Below are positions 1,012 to 43,111 of a stretch of DNA of 64,000 nt, piece by piece. The notes beneath the pieces are model-generated. The model searched no databases. It had not been told where the DNA came from and saw nothing but the letters and a program-made list of their open reading frames with translations. The translations under genes and the position numbers were made by a program. Source of the DNA: Octopus vulgaris (taxonomy: Eukaryota); assembly GCA_951406725.2 (NCBI GenBank), contig OX597814.1:151714001-151778000 (forward strand), given 5' to 3'. Numbering within the stretch: the first letter of the stretch is position 1; every line of letters begins with the position of its first letter.

Positions 1012-1274
1012 GCACAAATAAGTTCTGTTCCAATCTACTCCAGTATGAAGCATCGAAATTTGCGGTCATATACCAAGGCCCTGTGCGGAGCTTTTGCTCT
1101 CGCTACGTTCTTTTACATGCTGATGGGAGTCTTTGGATCATTGTCGTTCGGCTCTGAAGTGCACAGTGATATCCTCCTTTCATACAAAAACCCAGACGTA
1201 CCAGTATTGATAGCAGTCATCCTACTTGCTGTCAAGGGAATTAGCAGCTACACAATTATATTCTTTCCAGGAAG
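1012..1274 (+). CDS. SLC38A7-like: SLC38A7/SNAT7-like amino-acid transporter, copy A, internal exon (end of TM6 to TM8)
   Basis: ttgcag| acceptor, AG|gtatgt donor. AQISSVPIYSSM...GSLSFGSEVHSDILLSY...SSYTIIFFPGR aligns with SLC38A7 CHVSSVPVFNSM...GFLTFGAAVDPDVLLSY...TSYPILHFCGR. Confidence 0.9.
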
Positions 1275-1510
1275 GTATGTATATGCATAAGTTTGTGTAA
1301 GCGTGCATGCATGCGTGTGTGTCTGTGTGCATGTGTCTGTGTGTCTGTGTGTAAGTGTGTGCTTGTGTGTGTGTGTGTGTGTGCGTGCGCGCGCATGTGT
1401 GTATGCGTGACTTTATGAGTGTATTCTTATATCTTTTCTTCTGGAAAGGAGACAGTGCTCATGACTCTTTACAGGGTCTCCGAGGTTTTATTTGTGAATT
1501 AAGGCTGTCA

Positions 1511-2432
1511 TTGGTTTCATGTTAAGAAAAGTAGAAAAATATCCTGACGTCTTAACAGTTTTTCAAGCCGATCACATGGAGAAAGATGTTCGCCTCCATT
1601 TTGGAAAACACAGCCTCATTTAGTTCTGTCTCGAGAAAGGACTCGTACACAAGGCCATGATCACGGACGCCAACGGAGTTGCAAAGACGTATATCGGAAT
1701 GACGGACAGCTCGTTCAAGGAAACGTATACACAATACCCGGCGTCATTCAGAGACAAAAGAAACATGCAACATCCCTGTCAGATATTGTATGGACATTGA
1801 AAGAAGGTGCGATAAGCAACCCACAGATAGAATGAAAAATTATTGCTAAAGCAAAAAATGCAGAGGACGGGGTACCACTTATGAATTCTGTATTACTGAA
1901 AAACTGAACACTAGGGTTTAAATTTTCTCAGATAACATCCTAAACATTAGGGATAAAACCTTCGCTCCCTGCATACACAAACAATATTATACACTCAAAT
2001 ACTTCAAAGAAGAGTTTTTATCTATGACAGTGATTCCACCAGGATAGCCCCTTTATTGAACGTGAAATCTGAACACATATGGCACACAAACTCCACACAC
2101 AGAAAAAATACGCCCCAATGACGAACTACCTCAGCATACAAGTATAAGAATACCACAGCCAGAGCAAAAACAAAATAAGAGAAGCAAATTGACCCCACAA
2201 CAGTTCACCCAAAAGACAGATCCAAGGGTGACAAACATATAAAAGATGCCACCCAAGAGTAACGTCTCTTGATCTATTGTTTTACTCACGAGAACTTACA
2301 AGAAACTCCGCGAAGTAAACGAAGCTTTTTTTTCAAAACGGAGGTGAATACCTTTCTCAATGCAGCCGGCTTGAAAAATTGTTAAGACACTAGGATATCT
2401 TCTTACATTTCTTAACATGGAAATGAAACCCA
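1511..2432 (+). mobile_element. Degenerate Penelope-like element fragment (GIY-YIG region) with inverted terminal segments
   Basis: KTYIGMTDSSFKETY around 1684-1730 matches the PLE YIGxT..FK motif. 1511-1610 is an imperfect inverted repeat of 2330-2432. Mostly shared with 41700-42470. Confidence 0.6.
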
Positions 2433-2496
2433 TGGTTTTATATATATATATATATATATATATATATATATATATATATATATATATATATATATA

Positions 2497-3150
2497 CTAA
2501 TTGGTGGAATTATTAATTATTAATTATTAATTAATTTCACCCTTTATTATTATTGATGATATAATTCTCTCCTTGATAATAAACTACAGTTTTTTCTGTA
2601 GAATTTTTTACTCGACAACACACGTGGGTGGGTGAGGGAGAATATGAGATCTCATTCGAACGTTTTGAATTCGTTGGTACTGGTCATAGGATATAGTTTG
2701 TCTGATGTTACTTGAATCGAATAGGTATGTTCAATTTTTTCAGTACTCTCAAATTTAAAATCTTGAAATACTGTGCTGAAGAGGAGAATGATCGAATGTA
2801 AATGTGATTTTTTCATTTTTCATATCTATCTAACTCCGAAACACGTCTACAGTTAATCAAATGCCGAGTGAATTTCGTTGTTTTTCCTCTCTGCCTACGT
2901 GAATTGTTTTTGAGTATATGTTGTCTGAGAGTTTCTTCTTATAGTAGAAGAAATAGCTAGATTCTTTGGCTGCTATTTCTAATGTTCGGTATGCGGTGAA
3001 GCAAATTTTTTTGCTGAACCCTAATTATAATTATACTCATAATTATAAAAAAATATTGTTCAAGTTTACCGAAAATGGTCCTTTTAACATGCCGAATACT
3101 ACTTGGTGGAATTATTATTAATTAATTAATTTATTTTTCCCTTTATTATT
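2497..3150 (+). mobile_element. Non-coding hammerhead-bearing retroelement (retrozyme-like), 602-bp unit with terminal redundancy
   Basis: TTGGTGGAATTATTA...CCCTTTATTATT occurs at 2501 and 3103. Flanked by (TA)n and (TTA)n. Contains a hammerhead at 2771-2852. Confidence 0.7.
2771..2852 (+). ncRNA. Minimal type-I hammerhead ribozyme motif
   Basis: Stem I CTGTG/TACAG, core CTGAAGA, stem II GGAG...CTCC, then GAAA-C-AC-GTC. Confidence 0.75.
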
Positions 3151-4204
3151 ATTATTATTATTATTATTATTATTATTATTATTATTATTATTATTATTAT
3201 TATTATTATTATTATTATTATTATTATTATTATTATATATATATATGCAAATATTATTTTAAAAACATTTCTTTTAATATAAGTATGCAAATATTCTTTT
3301 AAAAAAACTTTTCTTTTAATTTTTCCAGCATTTAATTTTGACACCTTGGGTAAGTGTCTTTTATTATAGCTGACCAAAAGCCTTGTGAGGGGATATGGTA
3401 GACAGAAACTGAAATAAGCCCGTCGTATATATGTGTGTGTGTGTTCATTTGTCATCGCACCATCGCTTGACAACCGATGTTGGCGTGTTTACGTCCCAGT
3501 AACTTAGCAGTTCAACAAAAGACATCGATAGAATAACTACTAGCCTTACAAAGGTCGATTTGTTTTACAGAAGGCGGTGCTGTAGCATGGCCGCAGTCAA
3601 ATAACTGAAACAAGTAAAAGAATATATATATTAATTCTTACACACGCACACACACACACACACACACACACACACACACACACTGATATTTCATTCAATG
3701 CTGCTCTCTGAGCCTCTAGTTGTTTAATTCCAGCTTCACCAAGCTTTCTGCACACCAGCAAATATGCTATTTGCCCTTTTTATGTATAAGAACAACTGTT
3801 ACTATGGGCTATGAACGACTGATTTATTGTCCGTAACTGATGAAACGTAACGACGCCCGATGACATCACTCATAGCCCAATGATGTATTTTCACACATAT
3901 AGTCTATGAAAAGAATTTTCTTGTGACTGTTTCCGCAGCGAAAGTTCTTATCATGTCCAAGTGTATACGAACTTGTACGATATGATTGTACACACTAATA
4001 TTACATTCACCGTTGCTATGTGCCCCTTTAATTTATGTATTATATGCGTGTGTAACTTCTAAAAATATACATACATACATATACATACATACATACATAT
4101 ATATATATATATATATATATATATATATATATATATATATATATGATAGATCGCTAGCCACTACGCATTCTTTATTTTCTTTCCTTGTTTCTTTCTGTGT
4201 TCCT

Positions 4205-40922: not shown

Positions 40923-40960
40923 AGAAATTTGAAAAGTTAAACACGAAACCGGTAATTTCT
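40923..40960 (+). ncRNA. Minimal hammerhead motif, U3:A8 variant
   Basis: Stem I AGAAAT/ATTTCT, core TTGAAAA, 2-bp stem II GT..AC, then GAAA-C-CG-GTA. Confidence 0.55.
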
Positions 40961-41457
40961 TCAAAAACTATGTCACTGTATGAAAAAAATTTATAACATT
41001 CTTCTGACATAATGACTCAAATATATATTTTTTAACCTTTTAAAACAAGCCTTCTGTAGTTTTTTTCACTTTTTACTATTTTCTCTCTCTCTCTCTCTCT
41101 CTCTCTCTCTCTCTCTCTCTCTCTCTCTCATATATACATATATATATACATATATATATATATATATATATATATATATATATATATATACACACATATA
41201 TATATATATACATCTAATATAGGATAAAAAATCTTTTCAAAACAAATTTCATCAAAGTGGCAACATATTAAAATACCATTAAAGGAGAAAATTATAAACA
41301 ATTTATAAGCAAGGGCAACAGAAAAAAAGATTTCTATGCCAAAATGCTGAGAATAGACTTTAAACCGTCAATCACATTACAATATACATTCACCATAAAT
41401 ACACGTCGTGCTGAAATCGAGAAAGTAAGCTAAAAGAGTCTTTTTTAAAATTCATTA

Positions 41458-41516
41458 TCTCTATATTGAATCAATTTCGGGATTAATCCCACGGATTTTT
41501 CCCACTTCAGTAGAGA
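41458..41516 (-). ncRNA. Hammerhead motif, A9U variant, inside a ~490-bp element next to a TA tract (41210-41700)
   Basis: Minus strand: stem I TCTCTA/TAGAGA, core CTGAAGT, stem II GGGA...TCCC, then GAA-ATTGA-T-TCAAT-A (AUA triplet). Confidence 0.65.
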
Positions 41517-42848
41517 ATGCGATAAGAAATAAATGAAATACTTACAAGCACCCATGGGAAAAAGCAGAAGCAAGAGTCATGTGTACACATAAGTACCCCA
41601 GTTATATCTAAATGTTAAATTCTTTAGCAAGCGTCACGAACCACAACTTTTAGTGGTTACCAGTCCCGAAGTCAATGGTAATAAATTTACTTTTAATATA
41701 GGATGTTACTCTTGGGTGGCATCTTTTATGTTTGTCGCCCTTGGATCTGTCTTTTGGGCGAACTGTTGTGGGGTCAATTTGTTTCTCTTATTTTGTTTTT
41801 GCTCTGGCTCTGGTATTCTTATACTTGTATGCTGAGGTAGTTCGTCATTGGGGCGTATTTTTTCTGAGTGGAGTTTGTGTGCTATGTGTGTTCAGATTTC
41901 ACGTTCAATAAAGAGGCTATCCTGTTAGAATCATTGTCACAGATAGTAACTCTTCTTTGAAGTATTTGAGTGTATAATATTGTTTGTGTATGCAGGGAGC
42001 GTAGGTTTTATCCCTAATGTTTAGGATGTTATCTAAGAAAATTTAAGCCCTAGTGTTCAGTTTTTCAGTAATACAGAGTTCATAAGTGGCACCCCGTCCT
42101 CTGTATTTTTTGGCTTTAGCAATAATTTTTCATTCTATCTGTGGGTTGTTTATCCCAACTTCTTTCAATGTCCATACCATATCTGAGAGGGATGTTGCAT
42201 GTTTTTTTTCATTTTTGTCTGAATAATGCCAGGTATTGTGTATACCTTTCCTTGAACGAGCTGTTCGTCATTCCGATATACGTTTTTGCAACTCCGTTGG
42301 GGTCCGTGATCATGGCCTTGTGTACGAGTTCTTTCTCGAGACTGAACTAAATGAGGCTGTGTTTTCCAAAATGGAGACGAACACCTTTCTCCGTGTGATC
42401 GGCTTGAAAAACTGTTAAGACGTCAGGATATTTTCCTACTTTTCTTAACATGAAACCAATGACAGCCTTAATTCACAAATAAATAAATTATATCCATCAA
42501 TTCAACGTTGGGCACTCATTATCATCGTTTGATATTTACGTATATATATATATATATATATATATAATATTATATATATATTTATATTATACACACACAC
42601 ACACACACACACACACACACACACACACACACACACACACACACACACACACACACACACACACATATAGAACCTCGGAGATTCCGTAGAGTCCAGACGA
42701 AAAGATATAAAAATACACTCATAGAGTCACGCATACACACATGGACACACACACACACACACACACATACACACACATCCGCGCGTGCACACACACACAC
42801 ACACACACGCATGCATGCACGCGCACACAAACTTATGCATATACATAC

Positions 42849-43111
42849 CTTCCCGGAAATAATACAATTGTGTAGCTGCTAATTCCCTTGACAACAAGTA
42901 GGATGACTGCTATCAATACTGATACGTCTGGGTTTTTGTATGAAAGGAGGATATCACTGTGCACATGAGATCCGAACGTCAATGATCCACAGATTCCCAA
43001 CAGCATGTAAAAGAACGTAGCGAAAGCAATAGCTACGCACAGGACCTTGGAATATGACCGCAAATTTCGATGCTTCATACTGTAGTAGATTGGAACAGAA
43101 CTCACTTGTGC
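42849..43111 (-). CDS. SLC38A7-like: SLC38A7-like copy B, exon (end of TM6 to TM8)
   Basis: 263 nt, same phases as copy A. AQVSSVPIYYSM...SSYTIVLFPGR. Confidence 0.9.

Follow-up and report, generated by a model that had tools for sequence, protein, structure and literature searches.

Localized amino-acid divergence between two inverted SLC38A7-like transporter paralogues in Octopus vulgaris

Two neighbouring Octopus vulgaris genes, A and B, encode related SLC38A7-like transporters and lie within an inverted duplication of approximately 60 kb, raising the question of whether their exons have diverged faster than their introns and, if so, by what process. The window analysed is a 64,000 nt stretch of contig OX597814.1 (151,714,001 to 151,778,000), to which the positions below refer unless a chromosomal position is given. 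The original prediction was that the coding sequences outpace the introns through diversifying selection on a normally conserved transporter, in the manner of receptor or host-defence families.

The inverted duplication and its genes

Both genes are intact and have nine exons, with GT-AG boundaries at all eight introns of each and open reading frames free of coding frameshifts, as had been predicted. Their features are as follows.

G000:C1:151685063-151710507, upstream of the window: gene A exons 1-6
1012..1274, + strand: gene A exon 7 (TM6b, TM7 and the start of TM8), with AG/GT ends and an open frame; Pfam Aa_trans, 51.1 bits
6179..6378, + strand: gene A exon 8 (TM9, TM10)
11310..11512, + strand: gene A exon 9 (TM11, C-tail, stop codon TAA), completing a 486 aa protein
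24840..33095, + strand: copy C, a third copy, degenerate and incomplete, which extends from intron 1 to intron 5 at about 80% identity
33677..58989, - strand: the part of arm B within the window, from chained BLAST blocks, mostly 85-98% identical
35106..35359, - strand: gene B exon 9, the assembly frame being open down to 35106 and giving 503 aa
39678..39877, - strand: gene B exon 8, spliced in the contigs of runs X3, X7 and X11 with 0 differences
42849..43111, - strand: gene B exon 7; Pfam Aa_trans, 55.5 bits; spliced in X3, X7 and X11 with 1, 0 and 0 differences
52666..52723, - strand: gene B exon 6 (TM6a), with no difference from A
54644..54736, - strand: gene B exon 5
57272..57410, - strand: gene B exon 4
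57616..57814, - strand: gene B exon 3 (TM2, TM3), with 12 differences from A, 11 of them non-synonymous
58507..58628, - strand: gene B exon 2 (TM1), within a 425 bp run identical to A that is likely to be a conversion tract
G000:C1:151780434-151780617, beyond the window: gene B exon 1

A and B arose through this inverted duplication. In the chained BLAST blocks, arm A spans about -46.6 kb to +13.0 kb relative to the window and arm B ends at about +86.9 kb. An assembly artefact, with two haplotypes written out in succession, was ruled out by the 4% divergence of the arms and by insertions that differ between them; it is also contradicted by the presence of A-type and B-type proteins in O. sinensis and by RNA-type contigs matching B. 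Genome searches with exons, which give lower bounds on copy number, found only A, B, C, the further copy D and one distant match (33% identity, C1:93.07 Mb). Copy C lacks exon 2, has an 11 nt deletion in exon 3 (27409 region) and has lost the acceptor of exon 4, whilst its exon 5 shows 0/57 differences from A and B; the single further match in the exon 3 search has an internal TGA.

Exons 7, 8 and 9 of B are joined in contigs from all three presumed RNA runs (X3, X7 and X11, from three studies); these were taken as RNA by guess, no run being recorded as such, but their contigs do join exons. The contigs of four of four runs have a letter at position 35136 that turns the codon matching A's stop into TAG, giving B a length of 493 aa. 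No A-type contig was among those listed for X3, X7 and X11, runs that were found with B sequence and whose contigs do not show absence; the depth over exon 7 in the three is wholly accounted for by the B contig. The A protein is equal in length to the full-length O. sinensis RefSeq model P0004 and identical at 479 of 486 residues, whilst a fragment from O. bimaculoides matches A at just 139 of 168. The public models differ from these structures: that of A (P0006) leaves out exon 7, that of B in O. vulgaris has a retrotransposon gag as its first exon, and the O. sinensis B-type model P0003 ends after exon 4.

A long-diverged daughter lineage

Upstream, head-to-head with the A/B lineage, lies D, a conserved SLC38A7-like copy that has six internal exon lengths in common with A and B (199, 139, 93, 58, 263 and 200). 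A tree of 18 of about 150 relatives places A and B with D and a scallop SLC38A7-like protein (support 93/89), although the node is not starred and the branch is long, the stem of A/B carrying 2.05 changes per column against 0.47 for D. The exon lengths and the tree together indicate that A and B descend from an SLC38A7-like gene. Judged by sequence, however, they form a long-diverged daughter lineage rather than the conserved SLC38A7 copy, and the description of a normally conserved transporter is false for this pair. At the 64 columns that are at least 70% conserved in alignment A1 (41 relatives picked for near-full length), D keeps 62 family residues and A only 43, and 19 of A's 21 losses are also found in B; the relatives keep 31-62, 36 of them at or above A's count and at most one of these equal to it. 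The replacements common to A and B include P258I, F262V, Q265E, C266A and H267Q in TM6, G92D/G93N after TM1, P346T in TM8 and R379T. Identity to the scallop protein (P0157) is 32-34% for A and B, compared with 56% for D.

Against the 25.6 bit cut-off for Pfam PF01490 (Aa_trans), exon 7 of both genes and exon 3 of B (31.0 bits) score as matches, whilst exon 8 falls short (21.6 bits) and two of the six exon pieces have no match. A protein search with exon 1 alone and a PDB sequence search returned no matches; the nearest Atlas clusters are SLC38A8-like. The structure predicted for P0004, the O. sinensis orthologue of A, has 11 helices (pLDDT 85.9, pTM 0.83), with TM1 and TM6 broken as in the APC/LeuT fold to which the model assigns the protein; Foldseek with this model gave TM-scores of 0.62-0.65 to SLC38A9 (7kgv) and AUX1, and also matched LAX3. 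A single-sequence prediction (pLDDT 43) was discarded. The alignment of A and B with their relatives shows N74 and S343/S344, which may be the counterparts of SNAT2 N82 and T384. In SNAT2, the sodium site includes N82 of TM1 and T384 of TM8 (PMC9906736). A literature search on the TM6 histidine of SNAT2 found nothing useful.

Distribution of the differences between A and B

The exon counts of the original prediction were reproduced: 20/263 differences in exon 7 (A 1012-1274, B 43111-42849; 17.5 non-synonymous, 2.5 synonymous), 8/200 in exon 8 (A 6179-6378, B 39877-39678; 4 and 4) and 19/179 in the first 179 nt of exon 9 (A from 11310, B from 35359), the whole of which, to codon 481, has 18 and 3. 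The predicted clusters in TM7, TM11 and the C-tail are present, together with an additional one in exon 3 (TM2-TM3), of which A's copy lies outside the window. The proposal that exons in general outpace introns did not hold, since the whole coding sequence differs at 70/1443 sites (4.9%; 72/1461 in BLAST columns) and the introns at 403/10326 (3.9%; Fisher P=0.065); it is exons 3, 7 and 9 that do so, whereas exons 1, 2 and 6 together have 1/364 differences. The original intron sample of 11/322 is similar to what is seen on either side of exon 8 (10/322 and 9/322). The introns beside exon 7 differ at 27/322 (8.4%) and 19/322 (5.9%), as much as the exon itself, and the flanks of exon 9 at 6/322 upstream and 14/150 downstream. 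Outside the coding sequence divergence is overdispersed: 112 windows, each of 200 columns, have a mean of 7.9 differences, a variance of 24.9 and a maximum of 22. At least 20 differences occur in 9.9% of non-coding 263-column windows and at least 21 in 0.9% of 185-column windows.

Expectations were set by the 22,316 non-coding columns of the locus itself. On this basis exons 3, 7 and 9 show 46.5 non-synonymous differences where 17.9 would be expected, which is 2.6 times the intron rate, and 6.5 synonymous differences against 6.9. The remaining exons have 8 against 22.1 (0.36 times) and 9 against 8.1, so that synonymous change runs at the intron rate in both sets. The maximum likelihood omega is 2.96 for exons 3, 7 and 9 (CI 1.35-7.39; LRT P=0.005) and 0.32 for the others (CI upper bound 0.82; P=0.02), from which it follows that the protein is still constrained. 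The test rests on one pair of sequences and just 6.5 synonymous changes. Whole-gene omega is about 1.0-1.32 (maximum likelihood 1.32, CI 0.82-2.23, P=0.34), and the three exons originally put forward, when pooled, give P=0.16. The claim of diversifying selection is therefore only partly supported: the local amino-acid excess is real, whilst dN/dS is not significantly above 1 over the whole gene.

A neutral null was built by block bootstrap of real non-coding blocks, with clustering kept and the three top exons picked anew each time (3000 replicates each). The non-synonymous share of the top three exons exceeded it (P=0.0023 and 0.0043), as did a 35-codon scan (P=0.0007 and 0.0003); total non-synonymous change did not (P=0.12-0.14), and a statistic based on the ratio of non-synonymous excess was marginal for the top three exons (P=0.04). 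Heterogeneity among exons was found for non-synonymous differences (P<1e-4; 0.002 without exons 1, 2 and 6) and not for synonymous ones (P=0.25; 0.56). By the N:S ratio alone no single exon or helix was significant (TM7 P=0.067).

Multinucleotide changes are a known source of false positives in selection tests (10.1101/165969). Seven clusters of changes within 2 nt were found, and gaps of at most 2 nt are similarly frequent in exons (10/70) and non-coding sequence (122/894). Such changes were rejected as the cause, omega being 2.38 (P=0.026) after multi-hit codons were dropped, and homopolymer context had no effect (2.70, P=0.011). The excess also survived dropping the C-tail (omega 3.39, P=0.008), dropping five changes private to O. 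vulgaris A (2.63, P=0.012) and counting isolated changes alone (P=0.04 and 0.012). As a control, exon 3 of pseudogene C against A and B gave a neutral N/S ratio of 1.02; the divergence of this exon was 1.7 times C's non-coding baseline in both N and S, so BLAST-based baselines may run low. With C as outgroup, seven exon 3 changes fall to A and one to B, against 36 and 47 in non-coding sequence (P=0.024). Of the seven residues at which A departs from its O. sinensis orthologue, four lie in TM7 or TM11 (67/486 residues; P=0.009), a result that is not independent because those four sites also differ between A and B.

The changes themselves are largely conservative, 27 of 50 being swaps among F, L, I, V, M and C, with a mean BLOSUM62 score slightly above neutral (P=0.06). 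Unlike host-defence families, to which the pair had been likened and in which exposed loops change, A and B differ mostly by exchanges of one hydrophobic residue for another within membrane helices. Neither their placement on a helical face (P=0.15-0.50) nor their coincidence with unusually variable family columns (P=0.23-0.27) was significant. The C-tail carries a 21 nt indel and a stop polymorphism, tolerance of which suggests weak constraint there. In exons 3, 7 and 9, sites with G/C in A and A/T in B outnumber the converse 28:12 (P=0.017; non-coding 399:389), an unexplained asymmetry that could reflect mutational or conversion bias; GC-biased conversion acting on A was rejected, the polarized exon 3 changes having no W-to-S excess.

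Explanations and known systems

On balance we favour positive selection confined to TM2-3, TM7, TM11 and the C-tail of this derived pair of octopus paralogues, with the rest of the protein being either under purifying selection or homogenized by gene conversion. The order of events would be from D to an ancestor of A and B (and C), and thence to A and B; the lineage as a whole may have changed its substrate or role. The later separation of A from B does not look like a new binding pocket, because TM1, TM5 and TM6a are identical in the two, and may instead have tuned helix packing, the conformational cycle or membrane partners.

A possible though less probable explanation is relaxed constraint over a mosaic of conversion, in which D does the job, the dispensable daughter's peripheral helices drift at an omega of about 1, exons 3, 7 and 9 belong to older tracts that escaped conversion, and silent changes are scarce there by chance. 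The whole-gene omega, A's lost family residues, the poor match of the O. bimaculoides fragment, the raised flanks of exon 7 and downstream of exon 9, the conservative substitutions and the truncated P0003 model are all in keeping with this, as are identical runs of 498, 425 and 357 bp (permuted 99th percentile 271, maximum 330; 2000 shuffles). However, older tracts ought to raise synonymous divergence too, and 6.5 changes were seen where the overall rate of these exons predicts about 15; the block null, which includes older tracts, is still exceeded; and the low omega of the other exons and the intact frames of both genes also count against it.

That the pair has left amino-acid transport altogether, as a carrier or sensor peculiar to octopuses that serves a different class of ligand, with a rewritten TM6 core and diversifying membrane helices, making a receptor-like family out of a lysosomal nutrient transporter, we regard as unlikely.

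The original alternative, intron-biased conversion, would have homogenized the introns whilst exon divergence still reflected how old the duplication really is, with selection acting only against conversion of functional residues. Conversion tracts do exist, and exon 5 of C is identical to A and B; P0003 has I96 and S143 (as O. bimaculoides) and I173, N174 and I199 (as C) where O. vulgaris B equals A. Nevertheless, the clearest tracts span exons 1, 2 and 6 with their flanks, without singling out introns, and synonymous divergence equals non-coding (15.5 observed, 15.0 expected), which disfavours conversion of this type and makes it very improbable as the sole cause. Least credible of all is that A is silent or decaying and that clustered or biased mutation produced the excess: the missing A-type contig, the seven clusters and the base asymmetry fit, but A is intact and closely matched in O. 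sinensis, a silent copy would drift at an omega of 1 and no higher, and exon clustering is like that of non-coding sequence, with the signal remaining once clusters are removed.

If localized positive selection is confirmed, the locus would trace a housekeeping transporter to a lineage-specific paralogue with a new core and then to a second split under selection in the membrane helices, an uncommon place to expect positive selection. As D, A and B lie side by side, swap and transport assays would be straightforward; genome-wide scans would miss the pair because the public O. vulgaris models of both genes are wrong. No earlier paper on the pair was found among open-access papers and bioRxiv; selection separating duplicates, which is the likely process here, is already known, and the gene pair itself is undescribed in those sources.

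In primate red and green opsins, divergence peaks persist under gene conversion, the introns being nearly homogenized and grouping by species (PMC3924837). As to such grouping in the octopus pair, 10 of the 12 intron 8 differences from B listed for DNA run X13, from another organism, have A's letter, with ambiguous copy assignment. A and B likewise are adjacent duplicates with conversion tracts and divergence in some exons that is rich in amino-acid changes. In contrast to those opsins, their introns differ by 3.9%, their silent sites match the introns instead of rising above them at the peaks, their clearest tracts lie on exons, and about 40 residues differ rather than a few key ones. Razor clam monocarboxylate transporters are reported to be a lineage-specific expansion with positive selection (PMC11939762); A and B resemble them as mollusc SLC duplicates that show hints of such selection, but belong to another family and comprise two intact copies and one fragment, with a rewritten core motif. 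The pair shares its Pfam family, 11-helix model and D's exon lengths with SLC38A7/SLC38A8 (SNAT7/8)-like transporters, whilst departing from the SLC38A7-like proteins in its low identity to scallop, its long stem branch and its replaced TM6 residues.

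The A and B transporter genes and their relatives

Self-BLAST revealed an inverted duplication, arm A extending from ~-46.6 kb to +13.0 kb and arm B from ~+86.9 kb to +33.7 kb, with one nine-exon gene per arm. Coordinates are those of the window; values that are negative or above 64000 lie beyond it on the same contig (G000:C1, where position is window plus 151714000).

exon 1 at -28937, final exon 11310-11512, + strand: gene A, 486 aa
exon 1 at 66617, final exon 35359-35106, - strand: gene B, 503 aa
24.8-33.1 kb, between the arms: C, a degenerate partial copy, ~80% identical
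exons 2-9 at -75.8 to -92.3 kb, - strand: gene D, a conserved SLC38A7-like copy (G000:C1:151621670-151638231, loci L010-L012), head-to-head with A and matching six of its internal exon lengths

Every intron of A and B is GT-AG and both reading frames are open. Genome searches with exon sequences found no further close copies; a distant Aa_trans-like match (locus L004, G000:C1:93069849-93070091) is 33% identical to exon 7. There is a 100-N gap in the upstream portion of arm A (G000:C1:151680705-151680804), and a segment of intron 6 is inverted in one copy relative to the other (47155-48066 vs -1024 to -138). Repeats in this region:

59004-64720, second LTR past the window end: young LTR retrotransposon in the first intron of B, with 552-bp direct repeats 99.3% identical, which we take from its ORF motifs to be Ty3/gypsy-like
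62952-63692: its gag-like ORF
60619-62964 and 59769-60674: its pol-like ORFs
18300-19800: transposase remnant, inverted ends 17964-18126 and 19641-19811, presumably Tc1/mariner-like
15828-17026, 7888-10420, 35864-37099 and 50585-52492: broken reverse-transcriptase-like elements (from ORF motifs), presumably LINE or Penelope-like
20336-21807: ~2.75 copies of a 534-bp unit, 99% identity

The reverse-transcriptase-like element of intron 8 is common to A and B, and is therefore older than the duplication.

Both proteins carry the Aa_trans family signature and have an SLC38-like predicted fold. Identity to a scallop SLC38A7-like protein is 32-34% for A and B vs 56% for D, the tree stem is 2.05 changes per column for A/B vs 0.47 for D, and of 64 family-conserved columns D retains 62 and A 43. 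Five losses common to A and B fall in TM6, which lines the substrate pocket in a SNAT2 model (PMC9906736). On the basis of identity, stem length and these lost columns, including those in TM6, D probably retains the conserved function, and the A/B lineage is likely to have an altered substrate or role. Among public octopus protein models, O. sinensis P0004 is identical to A at 479 of 486 positions and P0003, a B-type model, stops after exon 4; an O. bimaculoides fragment matches A at 139/168, and O. vulgaris P0005 is identical to B beyond exon 1. The first exon of B in models P0002 and P0005 is the gag of the retrotransposon in intron 1.

Divergence between A and B

The original prediction was that exons diverge faster than introns through diversifying selection. 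Its difference counts were exact (20/263, 8/200 and 19/179). The 481 codons that can be aligned contain 70 differences in total, 54.5 of them non-synonymous (N) and 15.5 synonymous (S), giving a whole-gene dN/dS of 1.04 by plain counting, or 1.32 (CI 0.82-2.23, P=0.34) with a mutation matrix from the locus's own non-coding DNA. With repeats and gap-adjacent columns removed, introns differ at 403/10326 columns (3.9%) and all non-coding sequence at 896/22484. Since the exon-intron contrast gives P=0.065, non-coding divergence is patchy (0-22 differences per 200 columns) and the introns adjoining exon 7 are themselves diverged (27/322 and 19/322), the claim holds for exon 9 and for the N sites of exons 3, 7 and 9, not for the gene as a whole.

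S differences number 15.5 in all, vs 15.0 predicted from non-coding sequence, and are spread evenly among exons (P=0.25); N differences are uneven (P<1e-4). Exons 3, 7 and 9 have 46.5 N vs 17.9 expected and 6.5 S vs 6.9 expected, an omega of 2.96 (1.35-7.39), whilst the remaining exons have 8 N vs 22.1 expected and 9 S vs 8.1 expected (omega 0.32). As these three exons were picked post hoc, a neutral null was built in which real non-coding difference patterns were placed on the exons and the choice repeated. This gave P=0.0023/0.0043 for the N share, P=0.0007/0.0003 for the densest 35 codons, P=0.04 for the N-excess ratio and P=0.12-0.14 for total N. The excess persists under a homopolymer-context model, and is still there once the C-tail, codons with several hits or the differences found in this A alone are dropped (P=0.008-0.026). 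On the predicted structure, changes map to TM2, the first half of TM3, TM7, TM11 and the tail, with A and B the same in TM1, TM5 and TM6a. Swaps among F/L/I/V/M/C account for 27 of 50 changes. With C as outgroup, exon 3 has 7 changes on A vs 1 on B, against 36 vs 47 in non-coding sequence.

Several points count against selection: the comparison has only two sequences, with 6.5 S changes in exons 3, 7 and 9; no helix reaches significance by itself; a 28:12 base asymmetry has no explanation; and exon 3 of C also exceeds its own non-coding baseline, although its N/S ratio is neutral. Relaxed constraint combined with a mosaic of conversion is the alternative account, and a less likely one. We lean instead towards localized positive selection between two copies of a derived octopus paralogue, with purifying selection and conversion as the background; the original observation is confirmed in part, and its interpretation partly supported.

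Transcripts and probable gene conversion

Exons 7, 8 and 9 of B are joined end to end in contigs from three presumed-RNA runs of three studies, with 0-1 differences from B in exons 7-8. These runs were all selected with B sequence, and as exon 7 depth equals that of the B contig alone, no A-type transcript was seen in them. The letter at 35136 in all four runs produces a TAG in line with the stop codon of A, where the assembly reads through; hence the terminal 10 residues of B in the assembly are an allele or an error. At 35035-35048, the assembly differs at three 3' UTR letters, for which the three presumed-RNA runs carry those of A.

A and B are identical over stretches of 498 bp (upstream of exon 1), 425 bp (spanning exon 2) and 357 bp, each longer than the maximum of 330 among permutations. 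At five positions the O. sinensis B-type protein retains a residue shared with an outgroup, whereas this B has the residue of A; conversion between A and B is therefore likely. It does not account for the N excess, because tracts span exons too and silent sites are no older than introns. Exon 5 of C (31514-31576) matches A and B at every site on which those two agree (0/57 differences), vs ~11% differing in C's introns, and conversion into this pseudogene at exon 5 is likely.

No earlier description of the A/B pair was found in open-access papers or bioRxiv. Divergence of duplicates under selection is a known process; the conversion pattern between A and B differs from that of the primate red/green opsins (PMC3924837).
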